In this document: positions 24,368 through 28,819 of the stretch, in pieces | How positions within the stretch are numbered: the first letter of the stretch is position 1 | How the letters are laid out: each line of letters starts with the position of its first letter | Made by a program: the position numbers and the translations under genes | The notes under the pieces: generated by a model | Told to the model about the DNA's origin: nothing | Database searches by the model: none | The model's input: only the letters and a program-made list of their open reading frames with translations | IMG/VR virus record: IMGVR_UViG_651053023_000011 | Location: 1-41,897 of that record | Direction: 5' to 3' (one strand) | Length of the DNA: 41,897 nt | From: a virus | Taxonomy: Duplodnaviria > Heunggongvirae > Uroviricota > Caudoviricetes

Positions 24368-24520
24368 TTATTCAGATTTACGCAGTAAAGGCCAGAGTAC
24401 GGCCAGCGCCATCGCCACCAGCACACCATCTGCCAGCACCGACATCAGCCGTCCGGTGAAATCCACCGCCACTACCAGAAACAGCAGGATGGCAGCCAGC
24501 ACAAGGCGCGCACTTTTCAC
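24368..24520 (-). CDS. small hydrophobic peptide (about 50 aa)
   Basis: GTG start overlapping TerB-like stop (GTGA); two hydrophobic stretches; below track cutoff. Confidence 0.3.
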   Translation of the reverse strand: MKSARLVLAAILLFLVVAVDFTGRLMSVLADGVLVAMALAVLWPLLRKSE

Positions 24521-24942
24521 AGGTACTGCTCCAGCGGCAACTGCAGCGCCTGAGCAATTTTCTTGAGCTGCGCTTCTTCATCCGGACCAATGCCGTCCTG
24601 GTCAGCAATATCGAGACACAGGCACAGCACATCAACCGCTTCGGCGGTTCCTGCCACATCAGCCAGTTCACGCAAAGCCTGAGCATTCGCACTACGAGGT
24701 GACGCTTCATAACGGGCGCGGATATTTGCACTCATTTGTGCAATCTCACCGGAGAACGGCGCAAAGGCAGGAAGTGCTGCAATGGTTTTTTCCAGTACAG
24801 CGATTTCTTTCGCATCACAGGTGCCGTCGGCGAATGCTATGGAATACGCGCCCCAGACGGTCGCCTCCACTGCGTCGCGGTTCTCCATCTTCTTCACTTC
24901 AGTAATGGCCTTGCGGGTTTTCTTTTTGAAAATACCAAACAT
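24517..24942 (-). CDS. TerB-like domain protein
   Basis: 140-aa ORF with AAGGA RBS; paired acidic motifs (AFADGTCDAKEIAVLEK and LDIADQDGIGPDEEAQLKKIAQ) typical of TerB fold. Confidence 0.65.
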   Translation of the reverse strand: MFGIFKKKTRKAITEVKKMENRDAVEATVWGAYSIAFADGTCDAKEIAVLEKTIAALPAFAPFSGEIAQMSANIRARYEASPRSANAQALRELADVAGTAEAVDVLCLCLDIADQDGIGPDEEAQLKKIAQALQLPLEQYL

Positions 24943-24961
24943 CGTGACTTTTCCTTTTAGT

Positions 24962-25053
24962 GGGTGAGCCTGCGCCCGGGGGTGACCAGTCCACAGAGAA
25001 AGTCACACTGACCATCCCGTAAGCTCACCCCTGAAAGGCTCTGTGGTTTTTTT
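24962..25053 (-). other. structured leader with interleaved dyads upstream of TerB-like gene
   Basis: GGGTGAGC (24962-69) pairs GCTCACCC (25023-30); CCACAGAG (24991-98) pairs CTCTGTGG (25039-46); T7 run follows on + strand. Confidence 0.35.
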
Positions 25054-25126
25054 GATGTGCGCCGGGCGTGGCGCGGAAATAAAAAAGGCCCGCCGTAGCG
25101 AGCCGCATAAATACTGAATTCTGAAT

Positions 25127-25150
25127 AAAAAAAACCGCCTGGCGTGGCGG
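25127..25150 (-). terminator. rho-independent terminator downstream of tRNA genes
   Basis: CCGCC/GGCGG stem with 6-nt loop followed on the minus strand by T8. Confidence 0.5.
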
Positions 25151-25516
25151 TCTATGGCATAAAATGGCATGAAGAGAACGCGATGATTTTATTATGACCA
25201 GAGACGTCGGGTGCCTCCCGAAACATCCAGTCCTGCATGGATGCTGTGGTTTCCCGCAAAACCGACTCTTTCAACCACCCTCGCACTGAGGAACGTCTCT
25301 GGGGTGTTATTTACAACACCGGAATGATACATTACCAGCCCTGCCAGGAAATACAAATCTCCACCAGTAATGCACCATTCCACTATTGTAAAAAAACAGC
25401 ACTGGTACCGTAATAAATAATATTCATTACAGAACAGGATGTGGTAAGGAGTTAGGGTAAAACATCCCACACATATAATGTGTCAGTGCCTGAAACAGCC
25501 TGGCATCGTCCTCTGC

Positions 25517-25591
<75 letters not shown>

Positions 25592-25594
25592 ATA

Positions 25595-25670
<76 letters not shown>

Positions 25671-25835
25671 AATGGTTCCTCAAGAAAAATAAAATGCCCC
25701 AGCAATACCCCCTCGGAACCGGGTGCGAATATTAACGAGATAAGATATTTTTTCAACAAAAATCAATGTCAATATTTGTAAATATACTCATATATTTTTA
25801 TTATTTCAATAATTAATAAATAACAGAAAGCGTGT

Positions 25836-26882
25836 TTAAAGATTATTTTCTATTACAGTTACAGTTTGATTAAATCTCTCTTTTTCCAGTTCCACACCAA
25901 TTGCCCGACGCCCCAGCGTCATTGCGGCTTTAATTGTGGAGCCTGACCCCATAAAGAAGTCGACAACCAAGTCTCCCGGACGACTGCTGGCGGTAATTAT
26001 CTGACGTAACATATCCGCTGGTTTTTCACAGGGATGTTTGCCCGGATAATACTGCACAGGCTTGTACGTCCAGACATCGGTATAAGGAACAGCAGCCGAT
26101 ACGGAAAAATAACGCCGTAAAGATTTGTACTCTGCCAGCAGGCTGGCATATTGTCGGTTCAGTTCACTGTATGCGCTGACCAGCTGGTGATGTGGTTTTT
26201 CCAGTTCTCCGCGCTGATGCTTTTCTGCTGCTACACGTGCAAATAACACCTGCAGTTTTCTGTAATCACCCTCGTTCGGCAACTGCCACTGACTTGTACC
26301 AAACCAGTGTGACGCCATGTTTTTCTTTCCGGTCGCTTCCGCTATCTGTTTCGATGTTACCCCAAGTGAATCACGCGCATCACGAAAGTAAGAAATCAGC
26401 GGGGCCATGACGTGCTGTTTTAGCTCGCGTCCCTTTGCCGCATAGCCGTCATTTTTGGGCTGGTATGGCCCCTGATAATGTTCTGCAAACAGAATGCGTT
26501 CTGTTGCAGGGAAATACGCCCGCAGGCTTTCCTTGTTGCATCCGTTCCAGCGTCCGGACGGCTTCGCCCAGATAATGTGGTTCAGCACATTAAAGCGCTG
26601 ACGCATCATGATTTCGATATCAGATGCCAGGCGATGACCACAGAACAGGTAGAGACTTCCGGCAGGTTTCAGTACCCGCCAGAATTGCGCCAGACACTGA
26701 TCCAGCCATTTCAGGTAATCATCGTCGCCCTTCCACTGGTTATCCCAGCCCTCGGGCTTCACTTTAAAGTATGGCGGGTCTGTGACTATCAGATCGACAG
26801 AGTTTTCCGGTAAGGTCTGGATAAATTCCAGGCAATCAGCGTTGATTAACTCACAACTGGATATTTTTACAGTATTGGCCAT
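25836..26882 (-). CDS. DNA methyltransferase, beta-class (N6-adenine or N4-cytosine), orphan
   Basis: 348-aa ORF with TDPPY catalytic motif near N-terminus and FxGSGST SAM-binding motif near C-terminus; no adjacent restriction enzyme. Confidence 0.85.
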   Translation of the reverse strand: MANTVKISSCELINADCLEFIQTLPENSVDLIVTDPPYFKVKPEGWDNQWKGDDDYLKWLDQCLAQFWRVLKPAGSLYLFCGHRLASDIEIMMRQRFNVLNHIIWAKPSGRWNGCNKESLRAYFPATERILFAEHYQGPYQPKNDGYAAKGRELKQHVMAPLISYFRDARDSLGVTSKQIAEATGKKNMASHWFGTSQWQLPNEGDYRKLQVLFARVAAEKHQRGELEKPHHQLVSAYSELNRQYASLLAEYKSLRRYFSVSAAVPYTDVWTYKPVQYYPGKHPCEKPADMLRQIITASSRPGDLVVDFFMGSGSTIKAAMTLGRRAIGVELEKERFNQTVTVIENNL

Positions 26883-27032
26883 AGATCAATAAGCACTTCT
26901 CTGATAGGCTCATACCGCTTTTGCGCAAAGCAGATGGGCCTGAGGTTTGCTTGTGACCCCAACGCATGAGCAGATGGCTGGCAGGTGCCGCTAACACCCA
27001 CCAGCCGCCCATTACCACAAATTAAAAAGCCT

Positions 27033-27230
27033 TCACTGCGGAAGGCGTCTGTAACAACCGAACTGATAATCTGCCAGACCCGCCATAACAAGCTGAGTCA
27101 GTATTAACTGGCAGCGTTCGCGTGAAAGGTAAGTATTCTGCGCAATTTCCCCGACAGTCGCCGGTTCGGTGACGCTCAATTCATTAAACACCACTCTGGC
27201 AGTTTCGGTCATATCCTGCTGTTTTAGCAT
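27033..27230 (-). CDS. small winged-helix-like protein (PapI/FaeA-like candidate)
   Basis: About 65 aa from internal ATG (MLKQQDMTETARVVFNELS...); directly upstream of methyltransferase. Confidence 0.35.
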   Translation of the reverse strand: MLKQQDMTETARVVFNELSVTEPATVGEIAQNTYLSRERCQLILTQLVMAGLADYQFGCYRRLPQ

Positions 27231-27349
27231 GTCTTTTTCCCTTTTCTGGTTAACGTGACATACCAATAACTCTTGCCGGAAAAGCCAGCAAGCTGAAAGA
27301 CCGGTATTCGTAACCACCAGCGCGTTTAATGTTCTGTGCCGTTTTTAGG

Positions 27350-27380
27350 GCACAAAAAACCCGCCCGGCGGCGGTTTTAA
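27350..27380. terminator. GC-rich hairpin flanked by A and T runs (bidirectional terminator candidate)
   Basis: AAAAAACCCGCCCGGCGGCGGTTTT. Confidence 0.4.
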
Positions 27381-27480
27381 GCTGTGTGACGTAGTAATCA
27401 CTCTTAACATCATATTTAAATTTTTACGTACGTAAACCTGTACGTATAACTTTATATTATAAAAATGCAACAACTATAAT

Positions 27481-27507
27481 ATTTTAGATATTTTAGATAT
27501 TTTAGAT
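27481..27507. repeat. three perfect tandem copies of ATTTTAGAT upstream of porin gene
   Basis: Direct reading; adjacent TATAAT and TACGTACGTA palindrome in AT-rich porin promoter region. Confidence 0.7.
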
Positions 27508-27686
27508 AAATACTGCATTGGAAATTATCACCAATATTTAACGCCACACATAAATGTGATATTGATCACACTATAAACCCTTAAATAAACCCCATATCTT
27601 GAAATAACCGTACCGATTAGATGTATATTTAAGTTGCAGCGACATTATTTTTTAATAATAGTTCCCAAAAGAACTAAGGATTCATA

Positions 27687-28769
27687 ATGAAAAAATTAAC
27701 AGTGGCAATCTCTGCTGTAGCAGCATCAGTATTGATGGCTATGTCCGCTCAGGCAGCTGAGATTTATAACAAAGACAGCAATAAATTAGATCTGTACGGA
27801 AAAGTTAATGCCGGGCACTACTTCTCCTCTAACGATAAACACGATGGTGACAAAACTTATGCTCGTCTGGGATTCAAAGGTGAAACCCAAATCAATGATC
27901 AACTGACTGGTTTCGGTCAGTGGGAATATGAATTCAAAGGCAACCGTGCTGAATCTCAAGGTTCCTCCGCAGACAAAACTCGTCTTGCATTTGCTGGTCT
28001 GAAATTCGGCGACTACGGCTCCATCGATTATGGTCGTAACTACGGTGTAGCATACGATATCGGTGCATGGACTAACGTTCTGCCAGAATTCGGTGGCGAT
28101 ACCTGGACCCAAACAGATGTATTCATGACTGAACGCACCACAGGTGTTGCAACTTATCGTAACAACGACTTCTTTGGTCTGGTTGAAGGTCTGAATTTTG
28201 CTGCTCAGTATCAGGGTAAAAATGACCACACTGACGTAACTCAAGCTAATGGTGATGGTTTCGGTTTCTCCACTACTTATGAGTATGAAGGATTCGGCGT
28301 AGGTGCAACCTATGCTAAATCTGACCGCACTAATAATAAGGTTATCTACGGTAACAACAGCCTGAATGCATCTGGTCAAAATGCTGAAGTATGGGCAGCT
28401 GGTCTGAAATATGACGCTAACAACATTTACTTGGCCACTACCTATTCTGAAACCCAGAATATGACGGTATTTGCTGATCGCTTCGTCGCTAATAAAGCTC
28501 AGAACGTTGAGGCTGTTGCACAATATCAGTTCGATTTTGGGCTGCGTCCGTCCGTGGCTTACCTGCAATCTAAAGGTAAAGATCTCGGAGTATGGGGCGC
28601 TCAAGACTTAGTTAAATATGTTGATGTAGGCGCAACCTATTACTTCAACAAAAATATGTCCACTTTTGTTGACTACAAAATCAACCTGATTGATAAGAGC
28701 GATTTCACGAAAGCATCTGGCGTTGCTACCGATGATATCGTTGCTGTAGGTATGGTTTACCAGTTCTAA
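27687..28769 (+). CDS. outer membrane general porin (OmpC/NmpC/Lc-like), prophage-encoded
   Basis: 360-aa ORF with AAGGA RBS, signal peptide ending AQA, N-terminal [17 protein letters not shown]-terminal ...YQF. Confidence 0.9.
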
Positions 28770-28775
28770 ATCTTT

Positions 28776-28819
28776 TTATTAAAAAAGATATGTTGTGGGA
28801 GATATTTATCTCCCACAAC
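28776..28819 (-). terminator. terminator candidate (tR-prime-like)
   Basis: 12-bp stem GTTGTGGGAGAT/ATCTCCCACAAC followed on the minus strand by a T-run. Confidence 0.4.

Follow-up and report, generated by a model that had tools for sequence, protein, structure and literature searches.

We consider it probable that an M.EcoGII-family DNA methyltransferase, produced from a Q-dependent late operon and limited by its leader RNA, carries out anti-restriction hypermethylation of phage DNA in this lambdoid prophage. The window, i.e., the whole stretch of viral DNA analyzed, is 41,897 nt long, and the methyltransferase gene and the small gene next to it both lie on the minus strand, so that upstream corresponds to higher coordinates. 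Upstream neighbors of this two-gene module are a porin gene, the antiterminator gene Q and a DnaB-like helicase gene, and downstream are two tRNAs, a TerB-like protein, holins and an endolysin. The features relevant to the module are as follows.

28958..29341, minus strand: antiterminator Q, 127 aa (Pfam Phage_antitermQ, E=3e-54; phrog_79)
27401..27437, minus strand: pR'-like late promoter, -35 TTTACG and -10 TATGAT (promoter scan)
27353..27374, minus strand: first intrinsic terminator, CCGCCGCCGGGCGG followed by U6, candidate tR' (terminator scan)
27033..27230, minus strand: gene for a minimal, acidic winged-helix protein of 65 aa (phrog_331), the first ORF after the pR'-like promoter
27020..27046, minus strand: second intrinsic-terminator-like hairpin, GCCUUCCGCAGUGAAGGC followed by UUUUU (terminator scan)
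26883..27031, minus strand: conserved structured leader RNA, ~150 nt, immediately 5' of the methyltransferase AUG
25836..26882, minus strand: methyltransferase ORF, 348 aa, beta-class N6-adenine DNA methyltransferase of the M.EcoGII family
25517..25670, minus strand: tRNA-Thr(UGU) and tRNA-Gly(UCC), immediately downstream of the methyltransferase gene (ARAGORN, Rfam tRNA)

The gene order runs from Q past the opposite-strand porin gene to the pR'-like promoter with its terminator, the small gene and the second terminator, and continues with the ~150-nt leader, the methyltransferase, the tRNAs and the lysis genes. This order suggests that the methyltransferase is a Q-dependent late gene. The sequence features of a lambdoid Q-dependent late operon are present, namely Q, a promoter-like site with a Q-type-specific element, an early terminator-like site and late genes on the same strand. 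The pR' assignment is based on consensus scans and on correlation with Q type: the dyad GTTTACGTACGTAAAAA within 27401..27437 is a candidate Q-binding element, the type of dyad correlates with the type of Q across 81 loci, and in Trabulsiella the same dyad element is located 33 nt after a Q that is 86% identical. A conserved transcribed block, TGTTAAGAGTG, begins at the pR'-like promoter. Q is presumed to activate read-through into the methyltransferase module. Another promoter may exist right behind Q, from which transcription would cross the porin gene in the antisense direction.

The first terminator is conserved in phiP27, 1720a-02 and Stx2a_WGPS2, and is a candidate for ending a short pR' transcript. 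The second terminator hairpin overlaps with the small gene's stop codon and directly precedes the leader, and a hairpin with a U-run is found before the leader in homologues, whichever gene lies upstream. This predicted context of two terminators and a start codon lacking a Shine-Dalgarno sequence is consistent with silence in the lysogen and with toxicity, and we infer that the methyltransferase is expressed late and is silent in the lysogen. The Thr/Gly tRNAs stand where ileZ/argN/argO and stx are located in Stx phages, as annotated in phiP27 and Stx2a_WGPS2, and the module is found between Q and the tRNAs/stx in phiP27 and Stx2a phages. The porin gene is on the opposite strand and outside the late operon. 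A 9-nt tandem repeat lies upstream of it, in line with the original mention of tandem repeats at the porin promoter.

The small gene is a real gene. It has an ATG start codon preceded by a Shine-Dalgarno-like AAGGGA, and its product matches phrog_331 (E=1e-37), forms 334 homologue clusters at 90% identity in Enterobacterales, and is under purifying selection, with dN/dS of 0.00-0.12 against homologues for pairs with unsaturated dS. AlphaFold2 predicts a winged helix of three helices and a beta-hairpin (pLDDT 89). The winged-helix-like nature originally predicted for this ORF is thereby supported, as is its conservation, but the proposed resemblance to PapI/FaeA regulators is not: the FaeA/PapI profile (PF04703) gave no Pfam match at E<=10, and PapI was not among the top structural matches. 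Foldseek returned generic winged-helix matches only, all with E >=1.5e-3. N-terminal winged-helix domains of O-methyltransferases (small-molecule type) were among these matches and were set aside as a likeness at fold level only.

A somewhat unlikely alternative is that the small protein is an ordinary DNA-binding transcription factor for phage or host promoters, acting independently of the methyltransferase. The winged-helix fold itself agrees with this, as the closest structures are DNA-binding domains of the BlaI, ArsR, MarR and IclR types, and the slot of the small gene is filled by unrelated cargo in other genomes. There are also weak Pfam matches to TrmB and MarR families; however, the only Pfam matches (TrmB, MarR_2, DprA_WH and HTH_24) are all sub-threshold, and TrmB (PF01978) reaches 18.0 bits (E=0.0026) against a gathering cut-off of 25.6. 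NCBIfam and PADLOC searches with the small protein gave nothing. The PGAP name, 'TrmB family transcriptional regulator', is thus shown to be an over-annotation of a 65-aa winged-helix protein. In addition, the protein has neither a dimerisation nor a ligand domain, it is acidic (pI 5.1) with a net negative charge, and its third helix is largely hydrophobic. If the promoter assignment is right, the small gene would be expressed only late.

In nearly all viral loci recovered via the small gene, it immediately precedes the methyltransferase at a fixed gap of ~150 nt. When viral loci were instead selected by the leader, the small gene was upstream of the methyltransferase in 95/108 and missing from 13/108, while the corresponding numbers for genome loci were about 53/78 and about 25/78. 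Roughly 70-90% of related loci therefore have the small gene ahead of the enzyme. Comparison of small-protein subfamilies with leader variants did not separate co-evolution from simple lineage linkage. The small winged-helix protein is a frequent co-passenger which the module does not require, and its gene ranks with the most frequent first late genes of these prophages.

Judged by its sequence, the 348-aa methyltransferase belongs to the M.EcoGII family and does not represent a new kind of enzyme. The protein matches N6_N4_Mtase in Pfam (E=8e-45) and has the predicted beta-class motif order, with DPPY (IV) at residue 35, then the target-recognition region and FxGxG (I) at residue 310. It is also an orphan as claimed, with no cognate nuclease among its neighbors, and its gene lies in a lambdoid late region with Q on one side and holins and endolysin on the other. 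The identity to M.EcoGII is ~85% over 347 aa, i.e., full length, a value that is approximate because the reference was machine-read from the SUPREM supplement and contains a few OCR errors. Identity is 93% to phiP27 L24 and 85% to the enzyme of phage 1720a-02, which Murray et al. (2018; PMC5778455) describe as a close match to M.EcoGII. Its dN/dS is ~0.1. A PDB sequence search found distant beta-class enzymes only (E about 1e-25), and no M.EcoGII structure.

Members of the M.EcoGII family methylate adenine without sequence specificity and are reported to be silent in lysogens (PMC5778455, PMC12707154). In the literature, M.EcoGII and M.EcoGI are described as toxic on expression but not expressed in lysogens, and an anti-restriction role has been proposed for them. 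From the 85% identity to M.EcoGII we infer that the methyltransferase is likewise non-specific, methylating adenine in any context. That it is a site-specific orphan with its own motif, despite this similarity, is very unlikely. The 15% of residues that differ from M.EcoGII, many of them in the central target-recognition region, leave some room for such a motif, and the NCBI name is 'site-specific DNA-methyltransferase'. However, this name is generic, and the sequence is bracketed by enzymes that are non-specific by experiment (PMC11551740), being 85% identical to M.EcoGII, 87% to Anc291 and 72% to SUPREM, whereas M.EcoGII and SUPREM share only 70% identity. The family's nearest site-specific relative, M.PflMI, reaches only 27% identity to M.EcoGII. 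Lysogens that lack a new methylated motif are what is expected for this family, and would be compatible with an anti-restriction role.

The leader is a new element of the module, and it is conserved and shows covariation. Two conserved, mutually exclusive and near-isoenergetic folds were found, which when constrained are 3.4 (A) and 3.5 (B) kcal/mol above the MFE. In fold A, helix P0 (UGGGC/GCCCA) closes a junction with P1 and P2, followed by P3. In fold B, P1 is extended by AUGGGC/GCUCAU, and GGUCA pairs with the UGAUC that immediately precedes the AUG. Pairing in fold A amounts to 91.9%, and 13 pairs and 47 cells are compensatory, compared with 4.9 and 7.9 in shuffles (0/500 shuffles). Compensatory double changes are seen in 8/12 P1 pairs and in 2 P2 pairs. 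The fold B helices are 94-99% paired. The GGUCA/UGAUC helix, in which UGAUC lies 1-6 nt ahead of the AUG, shows 94% pairing in 43 homologues and is nearly invariant, with little covariation. As P0 and P3 of fold A and the helices of fold B are mostly invariant, their support comes from conservation and not from covariation.

The leader occurs together with the methyltransferase. Its covariance model has a single match in the window (123 bits) and one match per locus, upstream of the methyltransferase, in 51 genome loci, and a methyltransferase start follows the leader in 117/117 scanned viral instances. In Xenorhabdus/Photorhabdus homologues, a P1-like hairpin alone is kept. Rfam 15, including SAM/SAH riboswitches and phage RNAs, gave no match to 26883-27031 at E<=1 with permissive filters, and a scan of 24900-29400 at E<=1 gave only the two tRNAs and chance matches. 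Literature searches for a described RNA motif upstream of M.EcoGII-family genes, or for expression data, returned nothing relevant. A 55-aa ORF at 26851-27018 was considered as a leader peptide and rejected, since indels shift its frame among homologues.

Chi sites are strongly over-represented and oriented in the prophage, with 14 sites, 12 of them on the minus strand, compared with 1.3 expected from shuffles, and one Chi octamer, GCTGGTGG, is located in the 5' arm of P1 (26998-27005, minus strand). This would suit a reading in which the 150 nt are conserved as a DNA-level element, be it a Chi recombination hotspot, a promoter or a site bound by protein, and not for their RNA structure. We find this highly improbable, as the compensatory double changes in P1 and P2 argue against it and homologues of the Yersinia, Lonsdalea, Symbiopectobacterium and Serratia type swap the Chi sequence but keep the helix. 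Moreover, the promoter scan found no promoter-like site on the coding strand within the leader, and no reading frame is conserved in the 150 nt.

The leader may gate the methyltransferase start. A more far-reaching and tentative proposal, which we regard as possible but not favored, is that it is an undescribed bistable riboregulator dedicated to the M.EcoGII family, serving as a post-transcriptional safety catch that is flipped by a trans factor. The default co-transcriptional fold may then pair the AUG-proximal UGAUC, and the trans factor may flip the leader to the three-way-junction state, which frees the start. Candidate factors include the acidic winged-helix protein (like Mu Com), SAM or SAH. 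The methyltransferase itself is a further candidate, via m6A on its own mRNA, since M.EcoGII also methylates RNA. The winged-helix protein might instead be an anti-defence factor, e.g., against m6A-dependent Type IV restriction, that accompanies hypermethylation.

In the preferred reading, the methyltransferase would be the second gene in the Q-dependent late operon of this phiP27-like lambdoid prophage. Transcription from pR' in the lysogen would halt at the terminators, so that the toxic methyltransferase is not made. Upon induction, RNA polymerase modified by Q would pass the terminators, and the methyltransferase dose would be limited by its leader, which has no Shine-Dalgarno sequence and is able to fold over the start region. 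The enzyme could then hypermethylate replicating phage DNA before packaging, and because of this the progeny would resist adenine-methylation-sensitive restriction systems of the next host. The anti-restriction self-methylation that was originally suggested thus gains support from the ~85% identity to M.EcoGII and from the predicted late-operon position behind two terminators.

The other role suggested originally, a methylation-dependent epigenetic switch in which a PapI/FaeA-like small protein and the methyltransferase control cargo such as the porin promoter, is extremely unlikely: a stand-alone winged helix like PapI and a tandem repeat upstream of the porin gene are both present, but the PapI/FaeA matches are lacking, the small protein is acidic and often missing, the porin gene is off the operon, the module sits behind two terminators and also occurs in phages without a porin or any fimbrial operon, and heritable marking of particular sites is not possible for a family that is non-specific and lysogen-silent. 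The predicted Q-dependent late position fits anti-restriction hypermethylation of progeny DNA and not epigenetic control of the porin.

M.EcoGII is a widely used tool, e.g., in MadID, long-read chromatin footprinting and SUPREM. The M.EcoGII-family literature we searched gave no account of how phages keep the toxic enzyme off and then dose it. Our results place the family in a regulatory cassette of a Q-dependent late operon, two terminators and a dedicated two-fold leader, and the coordinates and covariance model of the leader make the control mechanism directly testable. They also remove the tempting but unsupported idea that a PapI-like switch acts epigenetically on a prophage porin.

Among known systems, PapI acts together with Lrp and the site-specific methyltransferase Dam, the latter modifying GATC pairs within a fimbrial-type switch region. 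PapI/FaeA (PF04703) and the small protein are alike in being small stand-alone winged-helix proteins, but there is neither a sequence match nor a preferential structural match, the Lrp and site-specific Dam methylation features are absent here, and the partner enzyme is from a non-specific family. In phage Mu, the small gene com precedes and overlaps mom, Com is a zinc-finger RNA-binding protein, and mRNA structure hides the mom start codon. By analogy, both modules would encode a toxic, late, adenine-modifying anti-restriction enzyme, and Mom and M.EcoGII are both silent in lysogens (2025 review). However, there is no homology, the winged-helix protein of the present module has no Cys4 motif, a terminator and the 150-nt leader separate its gene from the enzyme, and the small gene is dispensable in many loci, being absent from 12-30% of leader-keeping loci.

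Lambdoid pR'-tR' control, including the StxS short transcript, likewise has a promoter downstream of Q that is soon followed by an intrinsic terminator, and genes for toxin or cargo and for lysis come after it (PMC7547250). The methyltransferase is not mentioned in the paper on the Stx-phage pR' region. The predicted pR'-to-tR' transcript here is ~50 nt, in contrast to 258 nt for StxS, and between tR' and the methyltransferase there are also a second terminator and a structured leader.

M.EcoGII/M.EcoGI from a prophage of E. coli O104:H4 C227-11 (PMC5778455) resemble the present enzyme in their beta-class order, length (349 vs. 348 aa), lambdoid prophage location and lack of a partner restriction enzyme, and M.EcoGII shows ~85% full-length identity to it. 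Family members have the leader in common, and the small upstream gene in most loci. The present enzyme differs in 15% of residues from M.EcoGII, and its activity is predicted from sequence. The M.EcoGII literature we searched covers the enzyme and not its native terminators, leader RNA or small gene. The same two-gene module, with upstream leader, terminator and 150-nt spacer, is found as L23-L24 in phiP27 and as gene pairs in Stx2a, Stx2c and Stx2d phages. In phiP27, the module also lies between Q and tRNAs, and the enzyme is 93% and the small protein 100% identical. The present prophage differs from phiP27 and the Stx phages in having a TerB-like gene in place of stx, Thr/Gly and not Ile/Arg tRNAs, and a porin gene between Q and the promoter.

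The neighbours of the methyltransferase show a phiP27-like lambdoid prophage that is read on the minus strand, in which the following features surround the enzyme:

29595-31025, DnaB-like helicase, upstream prophage neighbour
28958-29341 (-), antiterminator Q, upstream prophage neighbour
27687-28769 (+), OmpC/NmpC-type porin, opposite to the module, between Q and the Q-matched promoter element
27437-27421 (-), GTTTACGTACGTAAAAA element, candidate Q-type-specific
27436-27409 (-), promoter-like site (coding-strand scan)
27374-27353 (-), strong terminator-like hairpin with U6, candidate tR' (coding-strand scan)
27033-27230 (-), 65-aa small protein, N-terminus MLKQQDMTE, AAGGGA Shine-Dalgarno-like sequence before its start
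27046-27020 (-), second terminator-like hairpin, overlapping the small-gene stop codon
25836-26882 (-), 348-aa methyltransferase ORF, full-length N6_N4_Mtase domain (E=8e-45)
25517-25670 (-), tRNA-Thr and tRNA-Gly, downstream of the methyltransferase
late region beyond the tRNAs, TerB-like protein, two holins and endolysin

The enzyme has the motif order of the beta class (DPPY at residue 35, FxGxG at 310), and since Pfam, PHROG and PADLOC annotation of the neighbourhood found no nuclease, the label "orphan" in the original prediction is correct. The module is 92.5% identical to phiP27 at the DNA level and also matches many Stx2 phages, where, as in phiP27, Q flanks it on one side and the tRNA/stx genes on the other, as well as lambdoid prophages of E. 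coli genomes. At the protein level, the enzyme is 93% identical to phiP27 L24, 85% to the phage 1720a-02 enzyme, about 85% to M.EcoGII (GenBank EGT69837.1, machine-read from the SUPREM supplement), and 87% and 72% to the reconstructed ancestors Anc291 and SUPREM/Anc284. The 1720a-02 enzyme was named by Murray et al. as very similar to M.EcoGII, which methylates adenines of DNA and RNA irrespective of sequence context, is silent in its own lysogen and toxic on expression, and has a proposed role in overcoming host restriction (PMC5778455). M.EcoGII, Anc291 and SUPREM are all non-site-specific in experiments (PMC11551740). M.EcoGII and SUPREM are themselves only 70% identical, which places the window enzyme inside the tested non-specific range. 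Among site-specific enzymes, the family's closest relative is M.PflMI, at just 27% identity to M.EcoGII. By sequence, the window enzyme is thus a new member of the known M.EcoGII family, and this bracketing strongly suggests that it is non-site-specific.

Compared with phiP27, 1720a-02 and Stx2a_WGPS2, conservation starts abruptly at TGTTAAGAGTG, just past the -10, and continues through the terminator, while the promoter region itself is variable. The dyad-plus-A-tract just upstream of the conserved block is also variable, and across 81 loci it sorts with the type of the upstream Q protein. The same GTTTACGTACGTAAAAA element occurs in Trabulsiella, 33 nt after a Q with 86% identity to that of the window. 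We infer that the promoter and terminator form the pR'/qut-tR' unit (late promoter and first terminator) of the window Q, that insertion of the porin has separated Q from its promoter, with the porin itself lying outside the late operon, and that the late genes begin with the small gene, followed by the methyltransferase. Such an arrangement would explain the silence of a toxic enzyme in the lysogen, and it argues against heritable control of the porin by the module; the epigenetic porin switch suggested originally is not supported. The proposed anti-restriction role fared better, as the identity to M.EcoGII and the late-operon placement both support a late-gene anti-restriction methyltransferase of the M.EcoGII type.

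The porin position resembles the quuD-nmpC arrangement of the K-12 DLP12 prophage. In the 28770-28957 region, the porin is flanked by a minus-strand terminator-like hairpin with a 14-bp stem and T-run (28790-28821) and by a plus-strand one (28909-28926). About 180 nt upstream of its start lies a perfect 9-nt tandem repeat, ATATTTTAG x3.3 (27479-27508), adjoined by a strong plus-strand promoter-like site (27451-27480, 10/12 matches). On the other side of the module, the TerB-like "tellurite resistance" moron (phrog_632, 24517-24942 (-)), between the tRNAs and the holins, occupies the position of stx in related phages. A long, nearly perfect hairpin of ~90 nt (25305-25397 (-)) separates tRNA-Gly from the TerB-like gene, with a fold z-score of -4.5 for the surrounding 226 nt and only chance miRNA-like matches in Rfam.

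The small gene is a real gene, with dN/dS of 0.00-0.12 in comparisons with unsaturated dS. Its product matches phrog_331 (E=1e-37), and AlphaFold2 models it as a minimal winged helix (pLDDT 89; helices 9-16, 26-33 and 37-49, beta-hairpin 53-62), as predicted. The likeness to PapI/FaeA did not hold: FaeA is absent from the Pfam results even at E<=10, and the protein is acidic (pI 5.1; K+R = 6 vs D+E = 7), which is unusual for winged helices that bind DNA. TrmB, MarR_2 and DprA_WH matches in Pfam were all sub-threshold, and NCBIfam and PADLOC gave no match; "TrmB" is an over-annotation of a member of the known phrog_331 family, whose function is unassigned in PHROG. Homologues form 334 clusters at 90% identity (Escherichia, Shigella, Salmonella, Klebsiella, Citrobacter, Buttiauxella), but the family is narrow, as only 61 representatives at 50% identity occur among 1.84 billion proteins. 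A second subfamily (53% identity) is likewise followed by the enzyme (84% identical) and retains both the MLKQQDMTE N-terminus and the helix RCQLILTQL. Between the subfamilies (loci L084-L163 vs L004-L083), MLKQQDMTE and the helix-3 motif RCQLILTQLV-AGL are almost unchanged, which suggests that the function resides in these segments or that their nucleotide sequence is under constraint.

In the window, 150 nt separate the small gene from the methyltransferase. In 80 viral contigs found via the small protein, the enzyme comes next after a fixed gap of ~150 nt wherever sequence extends, except for one deletion and one truncation. Among 78 species-level genomes with enzymes 65-86% identical, the small gene is directly upstream in ~53; in the other ~25 the slot holds unrelated cargo, such as a CxxC zinc-ribbon protein, membrane proteins or an 823-aa restriction-modification fusion. 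Since it is missing from these genomes and from 13 of 108 leader-selected viral loci (present in 95), the small gene is not an obligate partner of the enzyme; it is the gene most often found in a slot whose content varies. In eight loci (L167, L169, L170, L173, L175, L179, L209 and L224; slot upstream of the enzyme, which starts at about 3501), the cargo between tR' and the leader differs by genus (the zinc-ribbon protein of 79 aa, a 135-aa protein, membrane proteins of 220 aa, the fusion being Eco57I-like), and in each the cargo is followed by a terminator and by the conserved leader.

The 150 nt before the enzyme, first noticed in loci without the small gene, are conserved whatever lies upstream, and a hairpin with a U-run always precedes them. 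The homologues compared share no conserved reading frame here, and Rfam 15 gave no match at E<=1. In an alignment of 43 diverse leaders, RNAalifold with manual curation gave fold A, and the same leaders can also adopt an alternative fold B:

Fold A, P0: UGGGC/GCCCA, closing the junction that holds P1 and P2
Fold A, P1: 12 bp, GGCUGGUGGGUG/CACC-GCCAGCC
Fold A, P2: UUCGCU/AGCGAA
Fold A, P3: GCUUU/AAAGC, after the P0-closed junction
Fold B: AUGGGC/GCUCAU, 99% paired
Fold B: GGUCA/UGAUC, UGAUC ending one base before the AUG
Fold B: AAGC/GCUU
Fold B: GGC-CAC/GUG-GCC (last three helices jointly 94% paired)

Fold A pairs at 91.9%, against 30-45% in slid controls, with compensatory double changes at 13 pairs and in 47 cells, compared to 4.9 and 7.9 in shuffles (0/500). 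Covariation supports 8 of the 12 P1 pairs, and one P2 pair occurs as CG 23, UA 7, AU 6 and UG 6. Fold B excludes fold A and is equally well conserved; the conserved segments that form "loops" in fold A are all base-paired in fold B. With constrained folding, the mean energies of folds A and B exceed the MFE by 3.4 and 3.5 kcal/mol, and in 21 of the 43 sequences fold B is the lower of the two.

A covariance model found exactly one leader copy in the window (26877-27031, 123 bits) and one in each of 51 genome loci, always abutting the enzyme. Of the leader, Xenorhabdus/Photorhabdus homologues retain only a P1-like hairpin. A pattern scan of viral contigs returned 118 instances, with the enzyme start 40-90 nt past the pattern in all 117 with room downstream. 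The Chi octamer lies within P1; as distant homologues lose Chi and keep the helix, structure and not Chi is what is conserved. The window holds 14 sites of this octamer (GCTGGTGG) versus 1.3 expected from shuffles, 12 of them on the minus strand, that of phage late transcription. Two are inside the module, at 26998-27005 (-) in the P1 arm and at 27314-27321 (-) between tR' and the small gene. The excess may relate to RecBCD protection of phage DNA (cf. PMC3784561).

Collectively, the arrangement supports transcriptional control of the enzyme by two terminators and Q antitermination, to which the leader would add control of translation, as a gate that restricts how much enzyme is made or sets when. 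No Shine-Dalgarno sequence was found before the enzyme AUG, and fold B would be the "off" state. This bistable RNA dedicated to the enzyme seems not to have been described before and, alone among the features here, merits experimental follow-up. Candidates for selecting the fold are the small protein, SAM or SAH, and the enzyme itself through an action on its mRNA. As selector, the small protein would be analogous to Com of phage Mu, although the two are not homologous and many loci can do without the small protein. A 2025 review groups M.EcoGII with Mu Mom on silence, toxicity and anti-restriction properties.
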